Below the pieces are notes generated by a model. That model saw only the letters and a list, made by a program, of their open reading frames with translations, did not search any database and had not been told where the DNA came from. Both the position numbers and the translations under genes were made by a program. Shown here one piece after another: positions 174 through 24,047 of a stretch of 64,000 nt of DNA; the first letter of the stretch is position 1, and each line of letters begins with the position of its first letter. This DNA comes from Candidatus Omnitrophota bacterium (GTDB lineage: Bacteria > Omnitrophota > Gorgyraeia > Zapsychrales > Zapsychraceae), in NCBI GenBank assembly GCA_050250375.1, contig JBFWOS010000002.1, positions 374,345 to 438,344 on the forward strand, given 5' to 3'.

Positions 174-1289
174 ATGATCCGTATTTTATTTATAATTTGG
201 TCTCTCGAACGCGGCGGCGCGGAACGGTTTTTAGCCGGATTGCTGGAGCATATGGACCGGACCCGTTTTGACCCGGTCCTGTGCTGCATGAACTGGAAAG
301 GGGAATGGGCAGAACCGCTGGAGAAAAAAGGGATAAAAGTCATCGCGCTCAACAAAAAAAACGGGATTGATTTGAAAGCCTTTCGGGCATTAGTCCGTAT
401 TATTAGAGAAGGGCGGTTTCAAATTGTTAATACCCATTTGTGGCTGGCTGATGTGATGGGCCGTGTGGCCGCAATTCTTTGCGGCGTACCGGTGATCATA
501 ACGACCGCTCAGAATGTGGATGTTTGGAAGAAATGGCATCACCGCCTGGTTGACCGGATCTTATCTTATAGAACGACAAAAATGATCGCCGTATCCAATG
601 CCGTAAAAGAATATTACCATCGCCAGGTCGGTTTTCCGGCGGCTAAGATTGAGGTTATACCGAACGCGATTGATGTATCCGCTTATGAGGATGCGGGGGA
701 TGTAACCTATCTGCAGAAAGAATTCGATCTGAAGCCGGGAGATTTTGTGCTGGCCTGCATCGGCCGGCTGAATTTACAAAAAGGGCATAAATATCTTCTT
801 GAGAGTTTAAAAGAAATATATAATGAAATGCCTGATTTGAAGGTTTTAATCGTGGGGGATGGCGAAGAACGGGACAATTTGAAACGAACCGCTGAAAACG
901 ATGGGATTATGCCGATGTTGCGATTTACCGGACAGCGCAAAGATATCCCGCAGGTCTTGGCATTATCCAAGGCGCTTATTTTGCCGTCGATTTTTGAAGG
1001 ATTGCCGTTATGTGTGCTGGAGGCGATGGCATCGGCCCGTCCGGTGATCGCGACCGATGTCGGCGGCACAAAAGAATTGGCGGTTGACGGCCAAACGGCA
1101 TTTATCGTTGAACCGAAAAGGCCGGAGTTGTTATCGGAAGCGGTCAGGCGGTTACGCGCGCTTCCTGATCAAGGCCGGCAGATGGGGATCAACGGGCGTG
1201 AAATCGTCAGACGAGAATTTTCGATTTCGACGATTACACGAAAAACATCAGATATGTTTGAACATTTAGTTGAGGGTGTCAATGTTTAA
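174..1289 (+). CDS. GT4-family (GT-B fold) glycosyltransferase
   Basis: N-terminal RILFIIWSLERGGAE and C-terminal EGLPLCVLEAMASARPVIATDVGG motifs typical of group-1 glycosyltransferases. ORF track starts at 153; I prefer the in-frame ATG at 174 (MIRILFII), which puts the conserved GGAE motif at the usual distance from the N-terminus. Confidence 0.78.
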   Translation: MIRILFIIWSLERGGAERFLAGLLEHMDRTRFDPVLCCMNWKGEWAEPLEKKGIKVIALNKKNGIDLKAFRALVRIIREGRFQIVNTHLWLADVMGRVAAILCGVPVIITTAQNVDVWKKWHHRLVDRILSYRTTKMIAVSNAVKEYYHRQVGFPAAKIEVIPNAIDVSAYEDAGDVTYLQKEFDLKPGDFVLACIGRLNLQKGHKYLLESLKEIYNEMPDLKVLIVGDGEERDNLKRTAENDGIMPMLRFTGQRKDIPQVLALSKALILPSIFEGLPLCVLEAMASARPVIATDVGGTKELAVDGQTAFIVEPKRPELLSEAVRRLRALPDQGRQMGINGREIVRREFSISTITRKTSDMFEHLVEGVNV

Positions 1290-4200: not shown

Positions 4201-4404
4201 GATAGAGATATTGATCGTGATAGTCAATATAAAGACCCTATGTTTGTTAATCGTATAGGTTTTACGGCAGAGTCCGTTAAACTCATGAAAAATTCACCGG
4301 CTGTGAATTCAGGAAAAATTATAGAGGGGCTTAAGACCGATTATATGGGAAATCCCAGGGATGAACGGCCTGATATCGGGGCGTTGGAGGTCATGTTCCA
4401 GTGA
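1282..4404 (+). CDS. O-antigen ligase / Wzy-like polymerase membrane domain (exosortase-associated O-ligase-like) fused to a C-terminal right-handed parallel beta-helix (pectin-lyase-fold) domain
   Basis: About 420 aa of polytopic membrane protein with a Wzy_C-like core (SRGSMMALLFACIAIVIVG, and so on). This is followed by about 600 aa with repeated NxxGxGIxV / NGGEGIGV beta-helix rungs. ATG at 1282 is preceded by GAGGGTG; the ORF-track TTG at 1270 is less likely. Confidence 0.7.
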   Translation: MFKKLLFIAFIWYLPLQLKLPNFPIFPMINILFILLTGVFLSSRNEKFVRPRFETPLMFFLIIWMFSFVYACMFTDGMPRVEIAREFKRLYLLPLGYFILSRCITDKKEIPFYFAAFLLCLVFAGHNTLRNGVLAGANYAIHKRSSGPFGTDWQASDIAGGYIATFTPLLVSFFFFSRQRMSKLLSAVGVGACGLGLMATYSRGSMMALLFACIAIVIVGTNELAKESKINFLVIIIGLVVGCVFWKAWVPQSIIARVEGTIELDDEEKDYYDYSLTDDEGDSVLDQSSQLRMKAWNEGLQFFMDNPLTGIGFRQVQFQLGHDPHNTFVLIASEMGAVGFLIFVWLIFSVMGHGFRLMGTEYNNLAVGTVGMMVGFIVVNCFYSNFFRDNVAGSFWVILAIIAAADNFRDDQSDSTNNNSDLPGNKRQTYAEYRKKYLKSVLFIFFVFCFTSSAMASEVKIERWWSEKNVSHLSVLDDLKPGLTGEIYYVDGLNGNDNNYGNSLKFPFKNIGRGIQNLKAGDILLIKAGIYKEKLWIQTAGTPEKPVIIGPYGDGEVILDASLEIDSWQPYKGNIYKVSCSKEVGAVVIDENPLFPNYNLYELSENQWYYDIANKLLYVYLKNGENPNNHPVGVVEYSKYNHAVFLNGARHVFLYGLTVRYAGGKGIEILGPYNRIEQCNIKFNAAHGIGMFRYENQHSDYTSVVKNHVYHNFLINWPRGRWPYKNGGWGMGIAGSASENGVITGNVVHKNGGEGIGVPVVGGQVIDNIVYDNWSVNIYSDSSSKAIIDRNLIYCEDIDPADLTNNKDERPWDGRSLKRLRAEGIMTADEDEPALSHDLKITNNIIIGCRKGVSHYGPAAWSGLKDVLVAHNTIILPDADGIWEDFVGINVPWNEGNNAGTVYRNNIVYATHKDTLLVNVAHDPLYRIEPFHGIAFDHNIWYHTSRKKPFYFGIPLITFFQDYDFKGWLKRGEDRDIDRDSQYKDPMFVNRIGFTAESVKLMKNSPAVNSGKIIEGLKTDYMGNPRDERPDIGALEVMFQ

Positions 4405-5564: not shown

Positions 5565-6263
5565 ATGAATAAAACATCCATATTAATCCCGACAAGATTT
5601 AATAACCGTTGGCCGTTGGAACTGACGTTTCAGACGATCCGGAAATATACAAAATGCCCGTATGAGATCATCGTTGGTGACGCGGGGATGGAGCCCGAAG
5701 CGCTGGAATTCGTCAAGGCGCAGAAGGATGTCCAGATTTGTCCTTGTCCGGATCCGATCCGGCCTAAAGATACGCTGGCCCGGTTTGCCCAATCTCCTTA
5801 TTTAATGTTTGTTCATGACGACATCCAGGTGCTCAAGGATGGTTGGCTGGAGCGCAGGATTGAATTGATGGAATCGGATCCGCGGGTCGGGGTAGTCGGT
5901 GAAATGAGCCACAATTACCTTGAAGGCTGGCGCTGGAAAAGATATTTTACGTTTTCACCGATTCATAAGCGGTTTTTTCCGCTGGGAATGCTGGTCCGCA
6001 AGAAGACCCAGGACCATCTCGAGCTGAAATGGGGGATTGAACGGGGATTTGACACCGGCGGTATTGCGTATCTGCAATTCTATAAACAGAAAGACTGGAA
6101 ATATAAAAAATATTTGTTCGGACAGGATATCAAACATTGGGGGCAGATGACCTGGGTGTTAAAGGAACGCAAACACACAACGCTGAATCTAAAGGAATTA
6201 CAAGATGAACGGCAGGTCAAGGTGAATATGATCAAAGAACTGCTGGCCAAGAAACAATATTAA
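5565..6263 (+). CDS. GT2-like glycosyltransferase (divergent)
   Basis: N-terminal SILIPTRFNN...EIIVGDAG and an HDD motif resemble a GT-A fold, but it is short and divergent. AAAGGTGA RBS lies before the ATG. Confidence 0.45.
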   Translation: MNKTSILIPTRFNNRWPLELTFQTIRKYTKCPYEIIVGDAGMEPEALEFVKAQKDVQICPCPDPIRPKDTLARFAQSPYLMFVHDDIQVLKDGWLERRIELMESDPRVGVVGEMSHNYLEGWRWKRYFTFSPIHKRFFPLGMLVRKKTQDHLELKWGIERGFDTGGIAYLQFYKQKDWKYKKYLFGQDIKHWGQMTWVLKERKHTTLNLKELQDERQVKVNMIKELLAKKQY

Positions 6264-6276
6264 GAATCTGAAAACC

Positions 6277-7215
6277 ATGAATGACATCCGACATCCTTTA
6301 GTCAGTATCGTTACGCCTACCTTTAACCGCAGCCGTTTTATCGATCGTCTGGTTAAAAATGTGCTGGCGCAGACGTATCAGGATTTCGAACTCGTCCTCG
6401 TGGATGACGGATCTACTGACAATACCCGGGAGTTGGTTGACCGGTGGATTAAAGAGAATCCCGGCCGTATCCAATATGTCTATCAGCCGAACCAGGGGTC
6501 GGGAGCGGCGCGTAACAACGGGATTAAACAGGCAAAAGGTAAATATATTGCCTTTCTCGATTCTGATGATGAGTGGACGCCGGACTATCTTGACAAAATA
6601 ATGACGGTATTGGAAAAAGGTGAATTTCAATGGACCGTCACCGGTGCCCGGCGTATCGATATCGGCAAGGACGGCCGTGAGCTGGATACGAAACTGATCC
6701 GTTGTCACCTGCAGGAGTTCAGCCATTTTTTTAAACGGGAATTAAACGTATATGAAGCGTTATTGACCGGAAATGTGGTCGGTGAAACTTCACGGATTGC
6801 CGTCCTGAAACAGGCGCTTTTAGCGGTGGGCGGTTTTCGGGACCATTTGAAACTCAGCCAGGATTATGAATTATGGCTGAGGCTGGCCAAAGCCGGCTAC
6901 AAATTGTTTATAACGGATGAACCGCTGGTCCTCTACCGTAAAAGCGTGGACAGCGTCACAAAAACACGCCTGGTTGAAGGTTTGCGTTACGGGTTTGAGA
7001 TCATCTGCGAATACAGCCGGGACGCGGTGAAACTGGATCCGATGTACCGGAAATTTTATGGCGAGAAATTGTGGGGATATGCCCGTGACATTCTTCATCA
7101 GCCGAAGAGGGACTATATTTTGATTCTAAAATGCATGATCAAAAGCTTGATGTTTGATTTTAATCTGACGAGAATATTTTCTTCATTAAATACTAACATG
7201 AATGTATCCAAATGA
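6277..7215 (+). CDS. GT2-family glycosyltransferase
   Basis: Classic GT2 N-terminus VSIVTPTFNRSRFIDRLVKNVLAQTYQDFELVLVDDGSTDNT, with a DSDDE motif. Confidence 0.82.
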   Translation: MNDIRHPLVSIVTPTFNRSRFIDRLVKNVLAQTYQDFELVLVDDGSTDNTRELVDRWIKENPGRIQYVYQPNQGSGAARNNGIKQAKGKYIAFLDSDDEWTPDYLDKIMTVLEKGEFQWTVTGARRIDIGKDGRELDTKLIRCHLQEFSHFFKRELNVYEALLTGNVVGETSRIAVLKQALLAVGGFRDHLKLSQDYELWLRLAKAGYKLFITDEPLVLYRKSVDSVTKTRLVEGLRYGFEIICEYSRDAVKLDPMYRKFYGEKLWGYARDILHQPKRDYILILKCMIKSLMFDFNLTRIFSSLNTNMNVSK

Positions 7216-7979
7216 CCGATGATAAAATTATATTGATGTACCACGGGATTACGGAAGAAGGCTTGATGCCGCCTTCCGAACGTGAGGTCGGCGCCGATCT
7301 TTATGATGTCAGGGTTGAAGACTTTTCCGCCCAGCTTGAATTGATCCGTAAAAAAGGGCTGGGTGTCAAAAAAATCGAAGAGGCCGGCACCAATGACATT
7401 GTCATCACCTTTGACGATGGTGAGTTTAATAATTTCAGTCTGGCCATGCCGTTGTTAAAACAGCACCAGTTCCCGGCGTATTTTTTTGTTATTACCAAGA
7501 GAGTCGGCCGTCCGGGTTATGTGCGGATGGAAGAAATTAAGGAGATGGTAAAGCAGGGCATGATCGTCGGTTCACACGGCATGAGTCATGAGGCGCTAAC
7601 CAACCTGAAAGACACCCTGCTTAATGAAGAACTGTCGGCGTCCAAGAAATATCTGGAACGGAATCTGGGCATTACCATTAATGATCTGTCGATCCCGCGG
7701 GGGTTTTGTAATGACAAGGTGCTGGATATGGCCTACGCCGCCGGTTACAAAAATGTATTTATTTCCGGACGGCCCAAAGACCTGGTCAATACGCTTTGTC
7801 ACAGCCGGGTGGCCGTGAAGAAAAACTGGGATCTTAAGCGGTTTGAGATGGCTTTAGACCGGCAGGTTCCGATTAAGGAAACGCTGACGGAGAAGACCAA
7901 AAATTTCAGTAAGCTTATTTTACGGGAAAACGGATATAACTGGATACGCAGCACATTATTAAAATTATTTAAAGGCTGA
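7212..7979 (+). CDS. polysaccharide deacetylase (NodB homology domain; PEP-CTERM-locus type)
   Basis: ITFDDGEFNNF...VGSHGMSHEAL motifs of the carbohydrate esterase 4 / NodB domain. The position inside an exosortase locus matches the PEP-CTERM-locus deacetylase subfamily. Confidence 0.75.
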   Translation: MTDDKIILMYHGITEEGLMPPSEREVGADLYDVRVEDFSAQLELIRKKGLGVKKIEEAGTNDIVITFDDGEFNNFSLAMPLLKQHQFPAYFFVITKRVGRPGYVRMEEIKEMVKQGMIVGSHGMSHEALTNLKDTLLNEELSASKKYLERNLGITINDLSIPRGFCNDKVLDMAYAAGYKNVFISGRPKDLVNTLCHSRVAVKKNWDLKRFEMALDRQVPIKETLTEKTKNFSKLILRENGYNWIRSTLLKLFKG

Positions 7980-9754: not shown

Positions 9755-10921
9755 ATGGTTGTTAACGGTATGAAATTTTTATTCTGGTTTTTTATGTTCC
9801 TCATTGCGTATTGTTATTTTTTTTATCCGGTTCTGTTGAGAGTTTTTGCGCGGCTGGTTCCCAGGAAAATTAACAAACAAACTATAACTCCGTCGGTATC
9901 GGTTGTTATTTCAGTCTGGAACGAAGAGGACGTCATCGAAGCCAAGCTGAACAATTTTTTAGCCCTGGATTATCCGGCAGATCAATTTGAAATCCTTATC
10001 GGATCGGACGGATCAACCGACCGGACAAATGCGATCATCAGGCAGTTTCAGGATCAAAGGATCCGCCTGGTTGAGTTGAATGACCGCAAAGGAAAAATGG
10101 CGACGCTGAACCGTCTGGTTGCGCTCGCGAAAAATGAAGTCATTATTTTTACGGACGCCCGGCAGACATTTGAACGTAATGCGATCAGGGAATTGGTCGC
10201 CAATTTTGCGGATCCCACGGTCGGATGTGTGAGCGGGGAGTTGATTTTTTCAAGTAAAGAAGGGGGGACGGCGCGGGGGATCAACCTGTACTGGAATTAT
10301 GAAAAGTTTATGAGGGATTGTGAAAGCCGGATCCATTCCATGCTGGGAGCGACCGGAGCGATTTACGCCATCCGGCGGGAACTGTACAGCGAAGTGCCGG
10401 TCGAAATAGTCCTGGATGATGTTTATATTCCTTTTAAGATTATCCAAAAAGGGTACCGCGCCATCTTTGACGGGGCCGCCAGGGCTTATGATGAAGTCGC
10501 GGACAGTCCCCGGGAAGAGTACAGGCGCAAGGCCAGGACGTTATTCGGGAATTACCAGATTTTCAAACGTTTCACGGGTTTGTTCAATCCGTTTAGCAGT
10601 CCGGTCGCCATCCAGTTTTTTTCGCATAAGTTTTTAAGGGTTATTGTTCCGTTTCTGATGATTGGAATTTTTTGTCTTAATATCGCGCTGGTTTATGATC
10701 CGTTTTACCGGATGGTGCTGGTGTTGGAAATTGTCTTTTACGGCATGGCCGTAACAGGCGCCTTGGCAAGACACCAAAAGTATGGTATTCTCAAACTTCT
10801 TTCCAGGGTCTGCTATGTGCCATATGTCTTTTGTCTGCTGAATTTTTCAGCGCTGATTGGTTTTATAAGGTACATTGGTTCAAAACAAACTATAACCTGG
10901 GAAAAGGCAAGGGCTCAATAA
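9755..10921 (+). CDS. membrane-bound GT2-family glycosyltransferase (synthase-like)
   Basis: N-terminal TM, then SVVISVWNEEDVIEAKL...ILIGSDGSTDRT, DAR and QxxRW-like region and C-terminal TM helices. Architecture resembles processive GT2 synthases. Confidence 0.7.
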   Translation: MVVNGMKFLFWFFMFLIAYCYFFYPVLLRVFARLVPRKINKQTITPSVSVVISVWNEEDVIEAKLNNFLALDYPADQFEILIGSDGSTDRTNAIIRQFQDQRIRLVELNDRKGKMATLNRLVALAKNEVIIFTDARQTFERNAIRELVANFADPTVGCVSGELIFSSKEGGTARGINLYWNYEKFMRDCESRIHSMLGATGAIYAIRRELYSEVPVEIVLDDVYIPFKIIQKGYRAIFDGAARAYDEVADSPREEYRRKARTLFGNYQIFKRFTGLFNPFSSPVAIQFFSHKFLRVIVPFLMIGIFCLNIALVYDPFYRMVLVLEIVFYGMAVTGALARHQKYGILKLLSRVCYVPYVFCLLNFSALIGFIRYIGSKQTITWEKARAQ

Positions 10922-10923
10922 TT

Positions 10924-11757
10924 ATGGAAAAACTGACCAGTTTTGTTAAATCTAACCGGAAAATACTCTTGTCATTTTTTGTCATGGCGGTCGTGTATTT
11001 TCCGACCTTGATCTGGATGTGGGACCGGTGGTGGGTCAGGGATTCTTATTATTCACACGGTTTTTTGATCCCGATTGTCAGTCTATACCTGATTTACCAG
11101 ATGAAAGACGAGCTTTCCAAGATCAAAGTTAAGGAATCACCCTGGGGCATGAGGATGGTTATCGCCGGCGTTTTGCTGCATCTTTTCGCGTCGCATCCGA
11201 ATATCCGTGTATTTTTTATATCGGGGTTTTCGATGATGTTTGTCGTGTCCGGGATAATTTTGTATTTTTACGGCGAGGAGATTTTTAAGAAAATTTCTTT
11301 TCCGTTAGCGTTTCTGGTTTTTATGATCCCGCTGCCATTGGTGGTCATCAATAAACTCAGCCTTCAGTTAAAGATGTTTGCGGCCGAGCTGGCGGCGATC
11401 ACGCTTAATAATATGCGGATTCTGGCAGTCAGGGAAGGGAGTATTATCCGGATGCGCCACGCGCAGGTTATTGTCGATGATGTGTGCAGCGGGCTGCGAT
11501 CGTTAATTTCGCTGGCAGCCCTGGGAAGTATTTTTGCTTATTGGCTGAAGGGGGCCACCTGGAAAAAATTGATATTATTTTTTTCCACCATACCGATCGC
11601 GATCATTACCAATATGTGCCGGGTGGTGGTCTTGTCCTGCATCAGTGAAATCTGGGGCACCGAATACGCCGACGGATTTGTCCATGACATGACCGGGTTT
11701 ATGGTGTTTGCGCTGGCATTTGTCATGTTATACACGGTAGGGAAATTGCTCGAATGA
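10924..11757 (+). CDS. xrtA: exosortase (XrtA/EpsH-like)
   Basis: Polytopic membrane protein with the exosortase catalytic-Cys motif DDVCSGLRSL. It sits directly upstream of an EpsI-like gene and in a locus with PEP-CTERM proteins. The ORF-track start at 10831 overlaps the previous gene; the ATG at 10924 follows its stop. Confidence 0.78.
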   Translation: MEKLTSFVKSNRKILLSFFVMAVVYFPTLIWMWDRWWVRDSYYSHGFLIPIVSLYLIYQMKDELSKIKVKESPWGMRMVIAGVLLHLFASHPNIRVFFISGFSMMFVVSGIILYFYGEEIFKKISFPLAFLVFMIPLPLVVINKLSLQLKMFAAELAAITLNNMRILAVREGSIIRMRHAQVIVDDVCSGLRSLISLAALGSIFAYWLKGATWKKLILFFSTIPIAIITNMCRVVVLSCISEIWGTEYADGFVHDMTGFMVFALAFVMLYTVGKLLE

Positions 11758-12383
11758 AAAATAAAAAATTAATCTTCGTTGGCGTGCTTGTCATTATTTC
11801 AGGGATCGTGTCCTGGACCACTTATCTCAGGGAGTACATTCAGGAAGATACGGTCAACATTCACTCATTTCCCAAGGAAATAAACGGCTGGGTCTCCGAA
11901 GAAATCCCGATCTCGGATGTTGAATACGCGATCCTGGAAACCCGCAACGCGTTTGTCCGCCGGTATACAAATCCCCAGGGAAAAGAAGTGTATATGTTTA
12001 CGGTTTATTCGCAAAAAAACCGTAAGGTTTCCCATCCCCCGGAGGTGTGTTATACCGGAGGCGGGGTCCGGGTGTCCAGCAATGAGATTGACACCATTCA
12101 TGTGCCGGAGGGTAATCTTACGATCAAGGCCCATAAACTGGGCCTTGAACAGAAAAATTACAAGCAAATCGCGTATTACTGGTTCAAGGTCGGGAAGTCT
12201 TTTACCCCCAGTTACTTCAAACAGCAATTGATGATTTTGACGAAAAATTTTGTCGGTAAGCCGGAAAGCAGTGCCCTGATCCGGGTCTCAGCGACCGTTT
12301 TAACGGATGAGGAAAGCGCCGTTGCGGATATCAAAGAGTTTACCGGTGTGATGCTCCCGCACATTTTTCAACACCTTCCTTAA
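11754..12383 (+). CDS. epsI: EpsI-family exosortase-associated protein
   Basis: About 209 aa with an N-terminal signal anchor. Its start overlaps the xrtA stop, which is the typical EpsH-EpsI gene pair arrangement. Confidence 0.6.
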   Translation: MKNKKLIFVGVLVIISGIVSWTTYLREYIQEDTVNIHSFPKEINGWVSEEIPISDVEYAILETRNAFVRRYTNPQGKEVYMFTVYSQKNRKVSHPPEVCYTGGGVRVSSNEIDTIHVPEGNLTIKAHKLGLEQKNYKQIAYYWFKVGKSFTPSYFKQQLMILTKNFVGKPESSALIRVSATVLTDEESAVADIKEFTGVMLPHIFQHLP

Positions 12384-12581
12384 TCTATATAATAAATTAA
12401 AATATGTTCACCCTGTTCAACATGTGTTGATAAAATTAAACATTACGAAGATGGATTTGTCATGGGATGTCTGTATTTGTCATAGTATGTCCTAGTGACC
12501 GGAATAAACGAAATTTATTTAAGTATATTATTTACAGCATTTTATGTAATTATTGAAATATGGGTTGATTGTGTTCTAAAG

Positions 12582-12598
12582 TTGGCACGCATATTGCT
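12582..12598 (+). promoter_or_regulatory. sigma-54 (RpoN) -24/-12 promoter TTGGCACGCATATTGCT
   Basis: Exact match to TGGCACG-N4-TTGCW with GG and GC correctly spaced, about 50 nt upstream of the sugar-transferase ATG. A sigma-54-dependent activator is encoded at 18179..19576. Confidence 0.62.
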
Positions 12599-12648
12599 CT
12601 ATTCGTGGGTACGTATATATTTATGAAAACGTTTTCACGAGGAGCAGC

Positions 12649-13503
12649 ATGACAAGAAAGAAGAAACAACTAGAAACAAGAAAAAGAATTTTAGCCGGTT
12701 TATTTGTGATGGTATTCGGCTTATGTGTGGCATCAGCCTGGGCAACGGTTTCATTCGTAAAACCTCAGGATGCTTCCCAATATATAGCGACTGCAGACCG
12801 ATCCGAGATCCCAGCTGATGTAACAGAAACAGCCAAAACACGGGCCCCGGAACCTTCAACAATGGCCCTTTTTGGCGGCGGTATCGTGGGTATGGTGATG
12901 AGTTTTATCCGAAGGACTTATGCGGCGGTCAAAAGAGTGTTTGACGTTGTGGCTTGTGTTGCCGGGGCGATCATCCTTTCGCCACTATTGATCCTGGCGG
13001 CGGTTTTGGTCAGGGTAACGTCCAAAGGCCCGATTATCTATTCGCAGACACGGGTCGGGAAAGACGGACAGCATTTCCAAATTTATAAATTTCGCACAAT
13101 GAGAGTTGATGCTGAAAAAAATACCGGTCCTGTCTGGGCGGCTAAAGATGATAAACGCTTGACCCCGGTCGGTAAATTTTTAAGAAAATCGCATATTGAT
13201 GAACTTCCCCAGCTTTTTAATGTGTTTAGAGGGGAAATGAGTGTGATCGGACCAAGACCTGAGCGGCCTGTTTTTGTCACCGAATTCAAACAGATTATCC
13301 CCAATTACGAAAATCGATTGGCGGTAAAACCCGGTATCACCGGTTTGGCCCAGGTCTGGCACCGGTATGATGAAACGATCCAGGATGTGAAGAAAAAGTT
13401 AAGATATGACCTCCTATATATCAGAAGGATGTGTTTCTGGGCTGACCTGAACATTATCCTCAGAACAGTTCGCGTTGTCATTACAGGGGAGGGAGCCCGA
13501 TAG
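12649..13503 (+). CDS. polyprenyl-phosphate sugar transferase (small PGT / EpsB-like 'bacterial sugar transferase' domain) with an N-terminal extension containing a PEP-CTERM-like motif
   Basis: C-terminal catalytic domain YKFRTMRVDAEKNTGPVWAAKDDKRLTPVGKFLRKSHIDELPQLFNVFRGEMSVIGPRPERP. The N-terminus has a signal anchor followed by PEPSTMALFGGGIVGMVMSFIRR. GAGGAG RBS is present. Confidence 0.82.
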   Translation: MTRKKKQLETRKRILAGLFVMVFGLCVASAWATVSFVKPQDASQYIATADRSEIPADVTETAKTRAPEPSTMALFGGGIVGMVMSFIRRTYAAVKRVFDVVACVAGAIILSPLLILAAVLVRVTSKGPIIYSQTRVGKDGQHFQIYKFRTMRVDAEKNTGPVWAAKDDKRLTPVGKFLRKSHIDELPQLFNVFRGEMSVIGPRPERPVFVTEFKQIIPNYENRLAVKPGITGLAQVWHRYDETIQDVKKKLRYDLLYIRRMCFWADLNIILRTVRVVITGEGAR

Positions 13504-13605
13504 ACAACACCTCATACATTACATCTTTAGGGAGATGTTTAATATAAAGATTAAAACAATGAAAAAAAACATAATCAAAAAAGTTCAAACAAGGGGAGTA
13601 GAAAA

Positions 13606-14485
13606 AATGAAGAAATTATTTTACGTACTTGCACTTGCTCTGACCGTTGCTTTACCGGCAACAGGGGCAATGGCTGATCCTGGCCCGTACGACACAACAA
13701 AATGTGCCGATAATAACGGTGGCGGTGTCTTTACAGCCTGCGAATCAAACAACACGGTTGATGTCTTTAATGCCATCAACAAGGTCTTTACAGACCGTGG
13801 TTTGGCTTCACCGGGATATACTGATAATGAAGGAACAGATGCCGTTCAATATGTTGCGCAGAACGAATTCTGGTCACAATTATCATCTGATGACTCATCA
13901 CAATTCGCTTTTATTTCGCTGACAGCGGGCAATTTAAACACCTTGGGTGTTTTTCCGGCTGGCGGTAATGCGGCAACCGATTCAACATTCTTTTCACTTA
14001 CTTTTACTGGTGAACAATTTACCGGTAATGGTACAATTGGTAATCCATATCCTGGTTTTACCAATCCGTTGAATAATGTTGATTTTGGTTTTTCACTAAA
14101 ATCAAATAATGAACCATTTTATACAAATATTCTTTCTTCAGTTCCTGGACAAAATGCTGATGGATTGGATCATATGCTGACTTTTGAATTGTCAGCCTTG
14201 GCTGGTCAAACCATCTATGTCAAATTGGATGGAAACAACGATGGGGACCTGGATGACGTCGAAGACACATTGGTAGAAATTGAACTGACCGATGAGACAT
14301 TCCTGATCGCCTGGGAAGATCTTTTTAATTCTTCTGCTGAGTTTGATTCTGATTACAATGATTCAATTTTCTTGGTTACCAAGATCAAACCAACAGACCA
14401 TGTCGTTCCTGAACCAATGAGTATGTTATTATTCGGAAGCGGTTTGGCCGGTTTAGTGGCTACTCGCCGAAGAAAAGTTTGCTAA
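13606..14485 (+). CDS. PEP-CTERM domain secreted protein (exosortase substrate)
   Basis: Signal peptide MKKLFYVLALALTVALPATGAMA; C-terminus VPEPMSMLLFGSGLAGLVATRRRKVC is a canonical PEP-CTERM sorting signal. AAGGGGAG RBS is present. The ORF-track start at 13475 has a long unconserved leader. Confidence 0.82.
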
Positions 14486-14566
14486 TTGTTTTAAAGTTGC
14501 AATTTGTTGCAGTATCTTTTTATAAAGTGACTTAAGAGAAATCTTAAGGAAGGAGGGTATATCCCG

Positions 14567-14848
14567 ATGGAAGTTTTAAAAAAGACAAAAACACTAAGAG
14601 CCTTATTTGCGGCAGCTCTTGTTCCATTCATCACCGCTTGTAATGGCGGTGGAGGTGGGGGTGGTTCAGCCCTTCTTGGCGTCGGCAGTTTATTTAGTGG
14701 CACAGGAGGCGGAGGGGAAGCCGGTCCAGGTTTACTCCCCGGTGGAGACCAAGTGGCTTCACTAACGAACCCGGAACCAGCTAGCATGTTACTTGTTGGA
14801 AGTGGAATGGCAGCGATGGCCTACTTTAACAGAAAGAGAAAGCAATAA
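14567..14848 (+). CDS. small glycine-rich PEP-CTERM protein (93 aa), possible lipobox
   Basis: C-terminus NPEPASMLLVGSGMAAMAYFNRKRKQ; signal peptide ending ITAC; poly-Gly tracts; GGAGGG RBS. Confidence 0.68.
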   Translation: MEVLKKTKTLRALFAAALVPFITACNGGGGGGGSALLGVGSLFSGTGGGGEAGPGLLPGGDQVASLTNPEPASMLLVGSGMAAMAYFNRKRKQ

Positions 14849-14884
14849 GAAAAGTCTGAAATTGACGATACAAGGCAAAAAAAT

Positions 14885-14924
14885 AAGGCAGGTTATTTAA
14901 AAAATAGCTTGCCTTATTTTTTTA
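14885..14924 (+). terminator. rho-independent terminator
   Basis: AAGGCAGG ... CTTGCCTT stem followed by TTATTTTTTT immediately after the last PEP-CTERM gene. Confidence 0.6.
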
Positions 14925-15127
14925 TCTTCGAAGGAAGATATTTATAAAAAACTAAATGGTTTCCCATAAATTTTATGGATTTGTCATTGACGGTGATTAA
15001 ACCCTATGCTACGATCATTGGCATAATATATTCGTACATAATGGTTTACCCGAATTTAAGATAATCAGACGGCTTTTATTCTTTGTCTTGAATTATTGAT
15101 GTTCGGGACAAGGGGATAGGTAAATAT

Positions 15128-15991
15128 ATGAAAGAGAAAAAATCACAACCTAAAATTTTTACAATCCTGCGCTCATCCGTCAATACAATTTTCACGAATG
15201 ACGCCATCATTTTTCCATTCTTTGTCATTATATTTTTTCAACTGTTAATTTTGGAAATTTTGTATTTCATTCCGCAATGGCCGCTGAATGTCTTTTTCGG
15301 TCCGATCGTGGCGAAACTCTGGTCGGTTACCTATATGCATTATCCGTTTAATCTGGTACTATTGCCGAAATTATTTTATTATGCGCTAATCCCGGTTTAT
15401 ATTCTGTTGTCCAGTTTTTTGATTTGCATGGCGATTTCCGCCATTCTCATGATCAATAACGATGAAGAACCTAAAGTGGGGGTAATTTTCAAACGGCTGC
15501 TTCCTTCCTATATATATATCGTTGTATGTTCGGTGATCACATTTTTCTTTATCAAACTTTTTATGCAGGGTTATGACCTGATTTATGAACGGGCGATGAA
15601 TATCCGCTCCCAGGCTGGGCCGATTTACTGGCTTAAAGCAACGGTTGTTCAGGGGGCGCCTTATTTTAAAGTCCTGTTGAATGTGCTGGGAACAACCATG
15701 TTTGCTTATGTGTTTCCGCTGATTGTCATTGAAAAACGCAATGTGTTTACAGCCATCATCGAGAATTTGAAATATGTGATAACAGCCCCGATTAAGACAT
15801 TCCTCATTGTCCTTATCCCGACATTGTTATATATCCTTATTCTGTTATCCCGGGGGCATGTCCCGTTTGAAGCGGAAATCCCTGAAATGCGGGTGGTATC
15901 GATCGTGGTGAGTGTTTTGGTGATGGTTTTTATTGACGCGGTCATTTATACATCCATAACAACATTTTATTTAATCAGAAAAGGACAGTAG
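15128..15991 (+). CDS. polytopic integral membrane protein, function unknown
   Basis: 287 aa with at least 7 hydrophobic helices; no recognisable motif. Confidence 0.5.
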   Translation: MKEKKSQPKIFTILRSSVNTIFTNDAIIFPFFVIIFFQLLILEILYFIPQWPLNVFFGPIVAKLWSVTYMHYPFNLVLLPKLFYYALIPVYILLSSFLICMAISAILMINNDEEPKVGVIFKRLLPSYIYIVVCSVITFFFIKLFMQGYDLIYERAMNIRSQAGPIYWLKATVVQGAPYFKVLLNVLGTTMFAYVFPLIVIEKRNVFTAIIENLKYVITAPIKTFLIVLIPTLLYILILLSRGHVPFEAEIPEMRVVSIVVSVLVMVFIDAVIYTSITTFYLIRKGQ

Positions 15992-16888
15992 ATGAAGAAG
16001 GCCTATCTATTTTTATTCGCGATTTTACTCGGGGTTTTTGCTGTTCTGACGGCCATGGACTTTCGGGGGAATTATGCCTCTGAACGGACGTTATGGAGGA
16101 TTAATAATGTTTTCGCCAAGGCGGCCCGGGATCCAAAGATTATTCCGGAAGCAACCTTCATCCGGATCGTTAACCAGTATGAACAATTTATTAAAGATTA
16201 TCCCGATTCGACCTTGTTGCCGGTAGCCCACATCCTGATCGGCCGTGTGTATATGATTAAAAAAGAATTCGGGAAGGCCAGGGATATTTATGAGGAAGTT
16301 GTAAAGTTGTATCATGACAAACCGAATATCGCTGTGGAAGTGGTGGCTGATATCGGGAGGACGTACGCGTTGGAAGAAAACGTGAATGGTGTGATCGGAA
16401 ATTACAAACGGGTCATCCAGGATTATCCGACCACCCAGATAGGGCTTCAGGCGCCCATTTTATTGACTAAATTGTATTCGGTCCGGGGAGATTCTGTTCG
16501 GACGGAAGAGGCGTATAAACAGGCGGTCGAACATTATAAAAAATTAATTAATGATAATCCCAATGACCGGATCGAATTTGACGCGTTACGGTCGCTGGGG
16601 ACATTATATCTGACGGCCAATCAAAAAAGAAAAGCGGTGGAGACCTTCGGAAAGGTTCTTGTAAAATTTCCCCAACGGGAGTATTTGACGTCGAACAGAG
16701 TTACCACCCTTATTAAAACAATTAATACGGTTGCCATCGTTGATCTGAAAGATTATGATCTTCCGGTTTCGATTTATGAAGAATTTATCAAAGTCCATCC
16801 CGACCACCCGTTTGTGAGTTCATTTAAGGATATTATCGAAAGCGTCAAATTATTAAAAGACAGTAAATTAACGATTGATGGAAAATAA
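15992..16888 (+). CDS. secreted TPR-like helical-repeat protein
   Basis: Signal peptide MKKAYLFLFAILLGVFAVLTA; helical repeat composition resembles tol-pal YbgF-like or TPR proteins. Confidence 0.42.
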   Translation: MKKAYLFLFAILLGVFAVLTAMDFRGNYASERTLWRINNVFAKAARDPKIIPEATFIRIVNQYEQFIKDYPDSTLLPVAHILIGRVYMIKKEFGKARDIYEEVVKLYHDKPNIAVEVVADIGRTYALEENVNGVIGNYKRVIQDYPTTQIGLQAPILLTKLYSVRGDSVRTEEAYKQAVEHYKKLINDNPNDRIEFDALRSLGTLYLTANQKRKAVETFGKVLVKFPQREYLTSNRVTTLIKTINTVAIVDLKDYDLPVSIYEEFIKVHPDHPFVSSFKDIIESVKLLKDSKLTIDGK

Positions 16889-16905
16889 TAAATTGAGCCT
16901 TCGAG

Positions 16906-18192
16906 ATGAAATCAGCCATTGATGAGTTAAGCCAGGCAGAATTATTTCAGAAAATCGGTGACATTTGTGCGACAGTCAACACGGCTTTGGGAGAGAAAGA
17001 TTTACTCGACGTGTCGCTTAAAAAAATTATGGAATTGTATGGAGCGACCCGCGGTTCGGTTTTTATCATTACAGAGGCCGGCCACGAGTTGATGCTCAAG
17101 AGTTCTTTCGGTATGAAGATCCAAGAAAAAGAAAGTATGATTAAACAGATGGGGCAGGGAATCGTCGGCCGGGTTGCCCAGTTAAAAGAACCGATGTACG
17201 TGGACGATATCGCGAAAGACGGCCGTTTTAGCAATTTCAAGGGCCGGGGCAGTTATTCAACGCCTTCCTTTATCTGCGCCCCGCTGATGGTCAAAGACCA
17301 GCTGATCGGCGTGATTAACATCGCTGATAAAGAGACAGGCAACCGATTTAACGAGACCGACATGCAGCTGCTGGATTTTCTTACCACCCAGGTCGCATTA
17401 AACCACCGACGGATCCAGCTGCATCAAAAATTCAAACGCATCGTTAAAGAAAAAGAAAGTCTGAAAGACCAGCTCGGCCAGACCGACCAGGAAAAAAATA
17501 AACTTAAAAAGCAGATCGTCGTCCATGAAAAGCTGGCCACCATCGGCAAGCTCGCCGGCGGTATTGCGCATGAATTCAATAATCCGCTGGACGGAGTTAT
17601 GCGGTACACGAACCTCTGTCTGGACCATATCCAGGAAGATGAGGTGGTCCGCGGATATCTGATTGAAATCAAACACGGTTTGAACCGTATGGCCAATATT
17701 GTCCGCAACCTTCTGGCCTGTTCCCGGGAGGATTATCCCGCCCAGCAATTTGTCGAGTTGAAACAGGCGTTTGAGCATGCCCTGTCCGCGAAAATGAACG
17801 AAATATTACGCAAGAATATAGTTGTTGAACGGAATATTTCCCAGAGCATTCGTCCGATCCGGGATCTTGGCATCGAACGTATTTTTACGAATTTGATCAA
17901 TAACGCAGTGGACGCCATTGACCAGGGGGGGAAGATTTCCATGAAGGCCGAGATCCATACCCAGGTTCTTGTCATTTATTTTTCCGATACGGGGCGGGGG
18001 ATCAGTCCGGAGCATATCAGCAAGGTTTTCGAACCGTTTTTTACGACCAAGGATATCGATAAAGGCTGCGGGTTGGGTCTGACGATTGTCGGGGAAATTA
18101 TCAAATCGTATGAAGGAACCATTGATATTGAAAGTGAGGTAGGGGTGGGGACGGCTTATACCATTAAAATCCCGTTAATTGACCATGATTGA
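16906..18192 (+). CDS. GAF-domain sensor histidine kinase (PrsK-like partner of the sigma-54 regulator)
   Basis: N-terminal GAF domain, HisKA H-box (HEFNNPL) and HATPase_c N/G boxes (NLINNAVDA, DTGRGI, GLGL). Confidence 0.72.
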   Translation: MKSAIDELSQAELFQKIGDICATVNTALGEKDLLDVSLKKIMELYGATRGSVFIITEAGHELMLKSSFGMKIQEKESMIKQMGQGIVGRVAQLKEPMYVDDIAKDGRFSNFKGRGSYSTPSFICAPLMVKDQLIGVINIADKETGNRFNETDMQLLDFLTTQVALNHRRIQLHQKFKRIVKEKESLKDQLGQTDQEKNKLKKQIVVHEKLATIGKLAGGIAHEFNNPLDGVMRYTNLCLDHIQEDEVVRGYLIEIKHGLNRMANIVRNLLACSREDYPAQQFVELKQAFEHALSAKMNEILRKNIVVERNISQSIRPIRDLGIERIFTNLINNAVDAIDQGGKISMKAEIHTQVLVIYFSDTGRGISPEHISKVFEPFFTTKDIDKGCGLGLTIVGEIIKSYEGTIDIESEVGVGTAYTIKIPLIDHD

Positions 18193-19576
18193 TAAACGCG
18201 ACAACCAGAAATATAACATTATGGTGGTGGACGACGAGCCGCTGATCCGGGAATCTTTGTTCGAGATTTTCAAGATCGAAGGATTCCGGGTGCAGATGGC
18301 ATCATCCGCCGAAGAAGCGCTGAAAGTCCTGGAAAAACATCCGGCGGATATTATTATCACCGATTTGAAATTGCCGAGAATGAGCGGCCTTGAGCTGCTC
18401 CAGGAAGTAAAAAAGAATTATGAAAGAACGGAAGTCATCGTGATCACCGGGTACGGATCGATCGAGACGGCCGTAGAAGCCATGAAGATCGGCGCCTTTG
18501 ATTATATAACCAAACCGATCAATGACAGTGAGATTAAGCTTATTATCGGGAATATTGTCGGGAAACTCAGGCTGATTGAAGAAAACGTCGCTTTAAGGGG
18601 GTTGATCGCCAAGGACAAACGCAAATCGCTGGCCGGGATGATCGGTTCCAGCCAGAAAATGCAGGCGGTTTACAACATCATCGATTCCGTCGCGTCCACA
18701 AACGCCACGATCTTGATTACCGGAGAGAGCGGTACAGGTAAGGGGATGGTGGCCAAGGCAATTCATTATTGTGATGAAAACCGTAAAAATAAACCGTTTG
18801 TTGAAATCAGCTGCGGGGCGCTCTCGGAGACCCTGCTGGAAAGCGAACTCTTTGGGCATATGAAGGGGGCTTTCACGGGAGCGATCAAGGACAAAGAAGG
18901 GCGCTTTGAATACGCAAAGGGTGGAACAATCTTTCTCGATGAAATCGACGCGTTTTCTCCCAGCCTTCAGGTAAAACTGTTAAAGGTTTTGCAGGACGGT
19001 GTCTTTGAGCGGGTCGGCGATAATGTGACCCGCAAGGCCGATGCCAGGATTATCGTGGCAACCAACCAGCAGTTGACGGATCTCGTCGATGAAGGGACAT
19101 TCCGTGAAGATTTGTATTACCGGATCAATGTCATCGCGATCCAGATGCCGCCCCTGCGGGACCGCAAGGACGATATCAAAGTGCTGGTTGACTTTTTCCT
19201 GGATCTCTACAGCAAATCAAACAATAAGAAGATTTCCGGCGTTTCCGATGAAGTGATCAAGATGTTTAAGAACTACAATTGGCCGGGCAATATCCGTGAA
19301 CTGGAAAACGCCATTGAAGGGGCGGTGATTATGGCCAAGACCGAGACCGTTCAGAAACAGGATGTACCGAATTATGCCAAATTTGATGAAACGGAGATCC
19401 GGTCGACGGAGATTAAATCGTTAAAGAAGGCGACTGAACAACCTGAACGGGAGCATATTATTTCCATACTTAACGAATGTAATTGGAACAGGAACAAGGC
19501 TGCTGCTGCGTTGGGGGTTAACCGGACAACTTTATACAATAAAATGAAAAAATATCATATTCTGGATAAAAAATAA
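18179..19576 (+). CDS. sigma-54-dependent Fis-family response regulator (NtrC-type; PrsR-like)
   Basis: Receiver domain (VVDDEP...DLKLP), AAA+ sigma-54 interaction domain with GESGTGKG Walker A and GAFTGA motif, and a C-terminal Fis-type HTH. Confidence 0.88.
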   Translation: MTMIDKRDNQKYNIMVVDDEPLIRESLFEIFKIEGFRVQMASSAEEALKVLEKHPADIIITDLKLPRMSGLELLQEVKKNYERTEVIVITGYGSIETAVEAMKIGAFDYITKPINDSEIKLIIGNIVGKLRLIEENVALRGLIAKDKRKSLAGMIGSSQKMQAVYNIIDSVASTNATILITGESGTGKGMVAKAIHYCDENRKNKPFVEISCGALSETLLESELFGHMKGAFTGAIKDKEGRFEYAKGGTIFLDEIDAFSPSLQVKLLKVLQDGVFERVGDNVTRKADARIIVATNQQLTDLVDEGTFREDLYYRINVIAIQMPPLRDRKDDIKVLVDFFLDLYSKSNNKKISGVSDEVIKMFKNYNWPGNIRELENAIEGAVIMAKTETVQKQDVPNYAKFDETEIRSTEIKSLKKATEQPEREHIISILNECNWNRNKAAAALGVNRTTLYNKMKKYHILDKK

Positions 19577-19582
19577 ATACCT

Positions 19583-20608
19583 ATGACCGATAATAAATCC
19601 CGAAAATTAGCGCAACAATTAATTATCAAAGACAAGTGGTGGGACATGCTTTCACGGTTTATCGATGTCCTGCGGATTAATATTTATATTGTCGACCGGG
19701 CCGGTAAAATTATCCTCCCTCCGGAGGAGAGCAAATACGGCGGACGGTTGTTGGCCCATCCGGAGCTGGGCTTCGATATTTTCAAGGAAGGGGACCAGTT
19801 TGAGGCCCAGTTTGTGCACCACACCCACTACCTTGAAACCGTGAACCGGTATGATTTGTTCAGTTACGCGATTCCGCTCAAGACCACCGCGCAGGAAATG
19901 ATTGCGTATGTCATGGTCGGGCCGATCATCCTTAACAAGCGATTGGAGATAAGTGAATATGTAAATCAGGCCAAGTTGATCGGTGCCAATGAGGACGACG
20001 TTCTTAATGAAGTCAACGAAATCCGGGTCGTGTCCAATATCATGATGAACTCGATTATCAATCTGCTTACCGAAATTGTCCGGGACAGCATTGAAATCAA
20101 TTCACTCAACGAGTCGACAATGACTGAAAATACGGTCTCCCAGAAGATGTGGGAAAAAGAGTTTGAAACGATTGCCAATGAGATTTATTCGACGGTGCGG
20201 GTAGACGAACTGTTGATCACCCTGCTGGATGTGGCTTTGAAAATGACTGATACGGAGTGCGGTTCGGTCATGATGCTCGACCGTAACACCAATGAATTGA
20301 CCATCAAGGCGTCCAAGGGCCTGAATGATCTTAAGATTCAGGGGATCCGTGTCAAGGTTGGAGACGGGATCGCCGGACTGGTGGCCAAGGTCAAGGCCCC
20401 GCTCATCATTGATGGCGGAAATCCGGATAACCGTGTCGCCCATATGTTGACCCGGCCGGAGATTCGAAAAGCTTTAGTCATGCCATTGGTTTCCAAAAAC
20501 CGCTGTTATGGAATTCTGAATCTGCACACCAACGGGGCGAATGACAAGATTGTTGAAAATCTTGATAATCTCCAATATCTGACCCAGTTATTATCCTCAG
20601 CGTTTTAA
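19583..20608 (+). CDS. GAF domain-containing protein
   Basis: C-terminal GAF-like region (TECGSVMMLD...GIAGLVA); no output domain. Confidence 0.5.
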   Translation: MTDNKSRKLAQQLIIKDKWWDMLSRFIDVLRINIYIVDRAGKIILPPEESKYGGRLLAHPELGFDIFKEGDQFEAQFVHHTHYLETVNRYDLFSYAIPLKTTAQEMIAYVMVGPIILNKRLEISEYVNQAKLIGANEDDVLNEVNEIRVVSNIMMNSIINLLTEIVRDSIEINSLNESTMTENTVSQKMWEKEFETIANEIYSTVRVDELLITLLDVALKMTDTECGSVMMLDRNTNELTIKASKGLNDLKIQGIRVKVGDGIAGLVAKVKAPLIIDGGNPDNRVAHMLTRPEIRKALVMPLVSKNRCYGILNLHTNGANDKIVENLDNLQYLTQLLSSAF

Positions 20609-23529: not shown

Positions 23530-23669
23530 CAGTCAGGTTGTTCGTTAAAAAATCATAAAAAGATGTTAACATCTCTTAATGCCATATTATAATAAGCACA
23601 TGCTCATAATAAACGCCATGTTAATGTGAGCATTTGATTAAAATAATATTACGTTTAAAAGGTGCCAGC

Positions 23670-24047
23670 ATGAAAAAAGGCCGCCGGAAAAAAGTTCGTT
23701 ATATCCAGCAAATGCCTCAGGTTTCTCAGTTCTCGCCCCGCGGCAAGCCGGGTCGTCCGGATGAAGTCGAATTAAAAGTTGATGAATTCGAGGCGATCAA
23801 GCTTGCCGATTACCAGGGATATGATCAATCTGAAGGCGCTCAGGCTATGGGTATTTCCCGGGCCAGTTTTGGGCGCATCTTGCGGAGCGCCCGTAAAGTT
23901 CTGGCAACCGCGATGGTTGACGGTAAGATTATTCGTATCCGTATCGGTGATGTGCAGGTTGGCGTTCGTCAAAAGAATCTTCCGGTCAAAGATAAGTCTG
24001 CTTCTGATGTTCAAAAGGCCGAGCAAACCCTAAGAGATATATTCTAA
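23670..24047 (+). CDS. DUF134 (UPF0251) family putative DNA-binding protein
   Basis: RRKKVRY...FSPRGKPGRP...EAIKLADYQGYDQSEGAQAMGISRASFGRILRSARKVLA matches the DUF134 signature (sigma-70 region-4-like HTH). AAAAGGTG RBS is present. Confidence 0.6.
   Translation: MKKGRRKKVRYIQQMPQVSQFSPRGKPGRPDEVELKVDEFEAIKLADYQGYDQSEGAQAMGISRASFGRILRSARKVLATAMVDGKIIRIRIGDVQVGVRQKNLPVKDKSASDVQKAEQTLRDIF

Follow-up and report, generated by a model that had tools for sequence, protein, structure and literature searches.

A conserved sigma-54-type promoter ahead of a priming transferase gene and two PEP-CTERM genes in a Candidatus Omnitrophota bacterium

A sigma-54 (-24/-12) promoter element was identified ahead of a three-gene operon in a 64,000-nt stretch of DNA (hereafter the window) from a Candidatus Omnitrophota bacterium (contig JBFWOS010000002.1, positions 374,345 to 438,344). 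The operon encodes a priming sugar-phosphate transferase, a secreted PEP-CTERM protein and a mini PEP-CTERM protein. The comparative data presented below make it probable that the element is a functional sigma-54 (RpoN) promoter, which drives this operon under the control of an NtrC-type regulator encoded next to it. To our knowledge, sigma-54 control of PEP-CTERM genes has previously been described only for Proteobacteria, namely in a computational study from 2006 and in a few experiments with floc-forming Betaproteobacteria. The locus would thus extend the same type of logic, i.e. a sigma-54 promoter accompanied by a neighbouring TPR protein, a kinase and an NtrC-type activator, to Omnitrophota, a phylum of mostly uncultured organisms with very small cells.

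The element TTGGCACGCATATTGCT matches the sigma-54 consensus exactly. Its core, TGGCACGCATATTGCT (12583-12598), agrees with all 11 specified positions of TGGCAC-N5-TTGCW, and the GG (12584-12585) and GC (12596-12597) dinucleotides are exactly 10 bp apart. The element has the same orientation as the transferase gene and ends 50 nt before its ATG codon at 12649, so that the initial annotation of this DNA, which had reported a perfect sigma-54 promoter about 50 nt upstream of a sugar-transferase operon, proved correct in both respects. The same annotation described the surrounding gap as the only one longer than 100 nt in the exopolysaccharide (EPS) locus. This is true solely of the upstream glycosyltransferase, exosortase and EpsI genes, all gaps between which are of 20 nt or less; the locus as a whole contains three such gaps (12384-12648, 265 nt, harbouring the promoter; 13504-13606, 103 nt; and 14849-15127, 279 nt).

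The exact pattern TGGCAC-N5-TTGCW occurs only once in the window (both strands considered), where dinucleotide shuffling predicted 0.02 matches (2 of 100 shuffles contained any match), and no additional site appeared when one mismatch was permitted. The looser pattern TGGC-N7-TTGC was found at three further positions (19032, 25520 and 32241), all of them on the minus strand. Searches ahead of the PEP-CTERM genes and of the regulator operon, and in the rest of the window, revealed no second sigma-54 promoter.

The transferase shows 100% identity to a protein of a Candidatus Omnitrophota metagenome-assembled genome, and its homologues (approximately 282 aa, 60-90% identity) number in the hundreds. 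The related loci used for comparison were obtained (i) by a genome scan (L001-L007; L048 duplicates L002), (ii) by a metagenome scan, which gave four extra full-length loci (L081-L084), and (iii) by look-ups of exact proteins, which gave loci anchored on the transferase (L161-L164) or on the activator (L165-L170). The sequence TGG(C/T)A(C/T)-N5-TTGCT was present on the coding strand in 18 of the 19 distinct Omnitrophota loci carrying an orthologous transferase gene, roughly 30-120 nt ahead of its start codon in the relatives; it was missing only from L084, the most divergent of them. The GG, GC and TTGCT positions are invariant, N5 varies (GCATA, GCAAT, GTATA, ATATA, ATTAT, ACTAA and others), and the mean column identity of the flanking intergenic DNA is 49%. 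Invariant contact positions combined with a variable spacer and variable flanks are what selection for sigma-54 contacts would be expected to produce. Moreover, the element travels with the transferase gene where inserted genes part the latter from EpsI (a HipBA module in L161, two enzyme genes in L164).

A fixed-pattern scan of 19 distinct Omnitrophota loci (281 kb, the window excluded) yielded 18 matches, 17 of which were at promoter positions, and L169 and the window each supplied one more match at such a position. The same scan of 148 control loci with transferase genes from other phyla (1.71 Mb) gave seven matches, none of them ahead of the transferase gene on its strand. The search for this promoter at other PEP-CTERM genes, which had been suggested at the outset, was also successful in related loci: the same element precedes the gene of a mini PEP-CTERM lipoprotein adjoining the regulator module in L165, and the gene of a 245-aa PEP-CTERM protein in L170. 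Since the element is kept in 18 of 19 related loci, the promoter is almost certainly real, and may be considered established as far as sequence analysis allows.

Among the control loci, a near-identical sigma-54-like element was observed on the minus strand in four otherwise unrelated sequences, as TGGCATTTCCATTGCT at position 372 of L025, 7641 of L121 and 3494 of L148, and as TGGCATTGCCATTGCT at position 7638 of L141. Three of these loci are labelled as Bacteroidales and one is an unlabelled metagenome contig. In L121 and L141 the opposite-strand element is located approximately 360 nt upstream of the transferase gene, and it may represent a conserved sigma-54 promoter of a divergent gene.

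The genes and sites discussed here are listed in Table 1. The transferase (gene 1) also exceeds the cut-off of TIGR03025 (311.8 vs. 295.55). The likeliest start of gene 2 is the ATG at 13607 rather than the start of the open reading frame (ORF) at 13475, and it is followed by a signal peptide (MKKLFYVLALALTVALPATGAMA) and preceded by a ribosome-binding site (AAGGGGAG). All three products score above the PF07589 gathering threshold of 20.7, and they are the only PEP-CTERM-bearing ORFs that Pfam found in the window, in which a regular-expression scan revealed no further convincing candidate. The signal is placed at the extreme C-terminus of the products of genes 2 and 3, and within the transferase. 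Orthologues of gene 3 were found in L001, L002 and L165 (in the last case with a sigma-54 promoter of its own). The gene 3 product combines a lipobox (FITAC) with a C-terminal PEP-CTERM signal, i.e. two different anchoring or sorting signals in a very small protein.

The operon is closed by an intrinsic terminator, as had been proposed for positions 14885 to 14924. L001-L004 and L162 retain this terminator, the arms of which show compensatory changes (GGCA/TGCC to GGTA/TACC in L004, TAAGG/CCTTA to TACGG/CCGTA in L162), and no terminator-like site was found on the plus strand between 12649 and 14879. The three-gene sub-operon postulated in the initial annotation is therefore retained.

Table 1. 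Genes and predicted sites of the sigma-54 operon and its surroundings (window positions)
Feature	Coordinates	Strand	Evidence
Exosortase	10831..11757	+	TIGR02602 181.4 vs. cut-off 105.55; TIGR04178 70.2 vs. 23
EpsI, exosortase-associated protein	11754..12383	+	PF11984 104.5; TIGR02914 83.2 vs. 42.8
Block A, preferred enhancer (upstream activating sequence) candidate	12403..12443	+	two abutting 21-bp inverted repeats ATGTT-N11-AACAT
Block B, second enhancer or architectural-site candidate	12458..12497	+	four TGTC(C/A)T(A/G)G units with 10-bp periodicity
Sigma-54 (-24/-12) promoter TTGGCACGCATATTGCT	12582-12598	+	exact consensus, conserved in relatives
Leader palindrome GAAAACGTTTTC	12625..12636	+	2 nt before Shine-Dalgarno GAGGAG (12639-12644); single occurrence in window
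Gene 1, PglC/WbaP-type polyprenyl-phosphate sugar-phosphate transferase	12649-13503	+	PF02397 230 bits
Internal PEP-CTERM signal APEPSTMALFGGGIVGMVMSFIRR of gene 1	residues 66-89, nt 12844-12915	+	PF07589 22.9 vs. gathering 20.7
Gene 2, secreted PEP-CTERM protein, 292 aa	13607-14485	+	PF07589 26.5 at residues 267-289
Gene 3, mini PEP-CTERM protein, 93 aa, Gly-rich	14567-14848	+	PF07589 22.5
Intrinsic terminator ending operon	14879-14928	+	stem 14879-14921, then T run
Sigma-70-type promoter of regulator operon	14987-15015	+	TTGACG-17-TACGAT, TATGC before -10
Polytopic membrane protein, first module gene	15128..15991	+	about six hydrophobic segments; no Pfam or NCBIfam match
TPR protein, signal-anchored, 298 aa, PrsT-like by locus position	15992..16888	+	TPR Pfam matches; N-terminal hydrophobic segment
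Soluble GAF-HisKA-HATPase_c histidine kinase	16906..18192	+	Pfam domains; no hydrophobic segment
NtrC-family response regulator/sigma-54 activator	18185..19576 (ORF from 18179)	+	receiver, Sigma54_activat, HTH_8
PocR-sensor and GAF protein without output domain, last module gene	19583..20608	+	PF10114 47.2; GAF 45.3

Downstream of the terminator there is a five-gene module (membrane protein, TPR protein, GAF kinase, activator, PocR/GAF protein), which is conserved as a block, its first and last genes being syntenic in all loci that bear it. The domains and motifs originally assigned to the kinase and the activator are indeed present. The activator, with PF00072 (111), PF00158 (225.5) and PF02954 (52) matches and with GESGTGKG (Walker A) and GAFTGA motifs in its translation, is a complete enhancer-binding protein belonging to the NtrC class, judged by its sequence. 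It is homologous over its full length to structures of Aquifex NtrC-family proteins (PDB 4L4U, 1e-100), and its helix-turn-helix (HTH), NWNRNKAAAxLG(V/I)NRTTLYNKMKK, hardly differs among ten loci. The sigma-70-type promoter of the module, TTGAC(G/T/A)-17-TA(C/A/G)(G/A)AT, is conserved in L001-L004 and L162 and serves the next five genes. Since the regulators have this promoter of their own and the gap preceding them contains no sigma-54 element, they lie outside the sigma-54 unit.

The module adjoins the sigma-54 operon in the window and in L001-L004, L162, L166, L168 and L169, and in L007 the kinase gene follows the transferase gene; the regulator pair is thus adjacent in 10 of the 15 loci with enough downstream sequence. 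In addition, at least 14 further pairs of transferase and activator homologues are apparently placed on a shared contig, which is suggestive only. This adjacency favours the earlier view that the kinase and the activator are the cognate pair of the promoter, an assignment made from gene neighbourhood that falls short of proof, given that the pair does not occur within 8 kb in the other five loci.

Two conserved blocks were recognised upstream of the promoter. Block A consists of two inverted repeats (12403-12423 and 12423-12443) and includes a perfect palindrome, TCAACAtgTGTTGA (12417-12430), found once in the window. Its half-site bases are invariant or nearly so in an alignment of 12 loci (A2). 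With a leave-one-out weight matrix applied to both strands of whole loci, 10 of 15 loci had their best match 150-166 nt upstream of the -24 element, and one more locus had it at 188 nt. In L163, the best block-A-like match (6962-6983) is found at the exosortase-EpsI junction, approximately 950 nt upstream of the promoter, and the site at 160 nt is weaker.

Block B, in the region of which a 20-nt tandem repeat was detected, is present in 12 loci (the window, L001-L004, L083, L161, L163, L164, L166, L168 and L169) and absent from five (L005, L006, L082, L007 and L162). In L165 a block-B-like run was seen in inverted orientation at a similar distance from the sigma-54 promoter of that locus (only a single unit exceeds the matrix threshold, and the others were recognised by eye), which would be consistent with enhancer-like behaviour. 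The interpretation of block B as a sigma-70 pair (TTGTCA-18-CATAGT) was rejected, as this arrangement is not conserved as such in other loci. No clear correlation was seen when the presence of the blocks was compared with activator adjacency across the loci.

Sites of NtrC-type activators are classically arranged as tandem palindromes at a fixed distance. Block A is preferred as the enhancer solely for its conservation in almost every locus, its constant distance and its palindromic form; we infer that it may be the activator site, and that block B may bind a second or an architectural factor. A search for an inverted-repeat enhancer 80-150 nt upstream had been suggested at the outset; the conserved palindromic block lies at about 160 nt, and the block at about 90-125 nt is made up of direct repeats.

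In L161, EpsI is parted from the sigma-54 promoter region by an inserted HTH-HipA toxin-antitoxin module (6239-7630), and further toxin-antitoxin pairs, several in number, are present 3' of the operon. The promoter and both upstream blocks are nevertheless intact beside the transferase gene of this locus.

Taken together, these features suggest the following mode of regulation. RNA polymerase containing sigma-54, presumably available in this organism, would be held at the promoter as a closed complex until it is remodelled by an AAA+ activator of the NtrC type. This activator would most probably be the response regulator of the module, phosphorylated by the soluble GAF kinase in reply to a signal that the GAF, PocR, TPR and membrane proteins encoded there would sense. 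The regulator would bind the two palindromes of block A as tandem dimers, and reach the promoter by looping over the TGTCC repeats and the AT-rich spacer. Transcription, predicted to begin near 12609, would span the priming transferase, the secreted PEP-CTERM protein and the mini PEP-CTERM lipoprotein, and end at the intrinsic terminator. The regulator genes would be expressed from their own conserved sigma-70-type promoter, and the exosortase, EpsI and glycosyltransferase genes upstream would form a separate unit, exosortase and EpsI being its last genes. With units and regulators arranged in this way, the initiation of polysaccharide synthesis and the production of exosortase cargo would be switched on together.

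Several observations weigh against this scheme. Regarding sigma-54 itself, rpoN was not found by Pfam scans of ten further large ORFs of the window, and a tblastn search with an E. coli RpoN query gave no match in 2 Mb of sequence from the collected loci; the intact GAFTGA motif of the activator is indirect evidence in favour of rpoN. As for the upstream blocks, there are two conserved elements, and neither could be linked to the activator: L162, where the activator is adjacent, lacks block B, and the L165 promoter has only a weak block A. The promoter is present without the activator within 8 kb in L006, L082, L161, L163 and L164, and three of the six activator-anchored loci (L165, L167 and L170) have no transferase gene within 10 kb. 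Finally, the best-scoring sigma-70-like sequence of the region, TTTTCA-17-TATAAT (10 of 12 matches), is located at 12365-12393, and no convincing terminator follows EpsI, there being only a weak 5-bp stem before its stop codon.

The observations on the blocks and on the separate occurrence of promoter and module are those to be expected if the sigma-54 promoter is real and is activated by an enhancer-binding protein encoded elsewhere, the adjacent pair controlling something else. We consider this rather unlikely. The pair is adjacent in two thirds of the informative transferase- or activator-anchored loci, and the module of L165 is directly preceded by a PEP-CTERM gene that has a sigma-54 promoter. 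Furthermore, the downstream genes of L161, L163 and L164 (ABC transporter, TP_0789-like, FeeM) resemble those preceding the module in L165, so that in these three loci the module may well lie just outside the 8-kb flank. Finally, no other sigma-54 activator gene was found in any examined locus.

The sigma-70-like sequence and the lack of a convincing EpsI terminator mean that read-through or a second promoter may contribute to expression of the operon. That the operon is transcribed mainly in this way, from the exosortase-EpsI operon or from the promoter at 12365-12393, with sigma-54 adding a conditional boost, seems to us improbable. A TATAAT-like run is admittedly frequent in other loci immediately 5' of block A. 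However, the -35-like part of the site falls within conserved EpsI coding sequence, and the site is not kept in L161 and L164, in which a different gene lies ahead of the promoter. That the -24/-12 element is strictly conserved, together with two upstream blocks at a fixed distance, argues instead that sigma-54 control has been selected.

The conserved 17-mer might also be the site of an unrelated protein, or an RNA element within a leader transcribed from upstream. The leader does contain a second conserved palindrome, GAAA(A/G)CG(C/T)TTTC, recognised in at least ten loci (the window, L002-L005, L081, L083, L163, L164 and L169). This explanation is nevertheless very improbable, as the conserved positions of the 17-mer are exactly the sigma-54 contacts and the variable ones its spacer, an Rfam scan of 12300-15200 revealed no known RNA family, and the element is accompanied by a sigma-54 activator gene and by PEP-CTERM genes, which is also the case in the proteobacterial precedent. 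A functionless chance match, conceivable a priori given that about 1.8 sites per window are expected once one mismatch is permitted, can practically be dismissed, as it is refuted by the comparative data (exact-match expectation of 0.02, and retention in nearly all loci while the flanks diverge).

The paired centre of the leader palindrome co-varies (A..T in the window, G..C in L005 and L169), and the palindrome could be an operator or a translational control element. Another conserved stretch, cataatatattcgtacataatggtttacccgaattt, was noticed 3' of the regulator promoter (15016-15090); it is recognisable in L001-L004 and has no match in Rfam. The sequence ATTTGTCAT, which recurs at 14979, was tried as an autoregulatory site and rejected: it is not conserved at that position, where it abuts the -35 hexamer of the conserved sigma-70 promoter.

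The regulatory arrangement proposed here, a sigma-54 promoter controlled by the adjacent NtrC-type regulator, has a clear counterpart in Proteobacteria. Haft et al. (2006; PMC1569441) described a sigma-54 motif (motif 2) and an upstream 17-nt motif (motif 1) before PEP-CTERM genes, both DNA motifs being common to Proteobacteria only, as well as the co-occurring PrsK (a transmembrane kinase), PrsR (NtrC-like) and PrsT (a TPR lipoprotein). In Aquincola tertiaricarbonis, pepA is RpoN1-dependent and its start site has been mapped, and epsB2, encoding a priming transferase, adjoins prsK-prsR (PMC9850573). In the Omnitrophota loci, too, a -24/-12 promoter and a conserved upstream element precede PEP-CTERM genes, and a TPR protein, a histidine kinase and an NtrC-type regulator with a Fis HTH are encoded in tandem near exosortase and polysaccharide genes; in L007, as in Aquincola, the priming transferase gene adjoins the kinase gene.

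There are also marked differences. Apart from the host phylum, none of the proteins reaches the NCBIfam cut-off of the corresponding Prs family: (i) the regulator scores 416.2 with PrsR (TIGR02915, cut-off 502.6) and higher, 437.4, with the AtoC model; (ii) the kinase scores 88.3 with PrsK (TIGR02916, cut-off 300), the match being confined to the kinase core (model positions 460-679); and (iii) the TPR protein, which has no lipobox cysteine, scores 29.9 with PrsT (TIGR02917, cut-off 312.2). The kinase is soluble and has a GAF sensor, unlike the transmembrane PrsK, the signal-anchored TPR protein is far shorter than the PrsT model of 899 positions, and the module additionally includes the polytopic membrane protein and the PocR-GAF protein. 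The designation of the regulators as PrsK/PrsR-type should consequently be restricted to their PrsT/K/R-like logic, as it does not hold at the level of protein family and the kinase has no membrane segment. The main target of the promoter is likewise different, being a three-gene operon headed by the transferase gene instead of single PEP-CTERM genes.

The upstream elements differ as well: motif 1 comprises 17 nt, ends with TTTACA and lies about 63 nt before the promoter, and the elements of the window are ATGTT-N11-AACAT palindromes approximately 160 nt away and TGTCC repeats some 90-125 nt away. A TTTACA sequence does occur at 12532-12537, 44 nt before the promoter, the comparison with motif 1 being limited to this end of it. 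As it is not conserved in any related locus, it was treated as a chance occurrence and rejected.

The composition of the regulator (receiver, AAA+ domain with GAFTGA, Fis HTH) corresponds more generally to activators of the NtrC/AtoC/ZraR type, as at glnAp2 with its tandem NtrC dimer sites. Tandem inverted repeats 100-200 nt upstream of the promoter and an AT-rich spacer that appears suited to looping are shared with classical NtrC systems; the direct repeats of block B, placed between the palindromes and the promoter, are not. A literature search linking Omnitrophota with PEP-CTERM regulation, sigma-54 or rpoN retrieved no such paper.

The combination of proteins outside the Prs families and different enhancer sequences suggests either a very old divergence or an independent recruitment of sigma-54 to the control of exosortase cargo, and either origin would support the view of sigma-54 as a general controller of the cell exterior. 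The promoter, the two enhancer candidates, the leader palindrome and the terminator provide a precise and testable cis-regulatory map for organisms that have not yet been grown.

The transferase itself has an unusual structure. It comprises a signal peptide (residues 1-32, ending with SAWA), a variable linker of about 35 aa, the PEP-CTERM signal, and a PglC-like enzyme of 195 residues that follows this signal. Of its three hydrophobic segments, one is the signal peptide, one is the transmembrane part of the PEP-CTERM signal, and one corresponds to the re-entrant helix found in PglC-type enzymes. In 25 Omnitrophota homologues (60-88% identity), P67, E68, P69, L74, F75, G76, G78 and G81 of the internal signal are invariant and the preceding linker varies.

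Residues 89-283 align with the structures of WbaP (catalytic domain) and PglC in PDB, and residues 1-88 have no match among solved structures. As in these small monotopic phosphoglycosyl transferases, the re-entrant helix contains a Ser-Pro break (P112 is invariant and S111 is present in at least 90% of the 25 homologues). In contrast to PglC and WbaP, the enzyme is preceded by a signal peptide, an exported linker and a PEP-CTERM transmembrane signal. This architecture is not represented by any NCBIfam model, residues 1-88 matching the generic PEP-CTERM signal only, and no description of a PEP-CTERM signal fused to a phosphoglycosyl transferase was found in a literature search.

The predicted topology, with the PEP motif outside, the helix in the membrane and the enzyme in the cytoplasm, is self-consistent. 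Whether the priming glycosyltransferase is itself an exosortase client is a matter on which we remain doubtful, and we put it forward as a tentative possibility. If exosortase does cleave the signal or dock on it, protein sorting would be physically coupled to the initiation of exopolysaccharide synthesis. Such coupling might take the form of (i) activation of the enzyme by processing, (ii) recruitment into one complex or (iii) transfer of a short peptide onto the nascent glycan. It would offer direct access to the question of what exosortase joins its cargo to, and the sigma-54 switch would then induce the enzyme and the cargo as one package. The internal signal could open the link between exosortase and polysaccharide to experiment. 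The exosortase of the window reaches no named subtype, as it scores below the cut-offs of XrtA (180.3 vs. 208) and XrtD.

Some further genes of the loci deserve mention. FeeM-like N-acyltransferase genes together with an AMP-binding/PP-binding/acyltransferase gene precede the regulator module in L165 (1976-6196), L167 (3272-6692) and L170 (3320-6743), and in L167 and L170 a gene of a PAS-GAF-GGDEF protein is also present upstream of the module. FeeM-like and AMP-binding/acyltransferase enzymes are among the types listed as exosortase-associated.

On the other side of the module, 3' of the PocR-GAF gene, L165-L170 carry a neighbouring gene encoding a DUF134 protein. In the window its counterpart (23634-24047) is separated from the module by inserted epimerase and peptidase genes. 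This protein has a sub-threshold HTH resembling sigma-70 region 4 (21.5 bits vs. a gathering score of 25.7), and it is a candidate binder of block B or of the leader palindrome.

Within the same polysaccharide locus, a 1044-aa protein (1270-4404) represents an unusual fusion, in which a membrane domain of the O-antigen-ligase/Wzy_C type is joined to right-handed beta-helix repeats and, at the C-terminus, to a choice-of-anchor Q domain.

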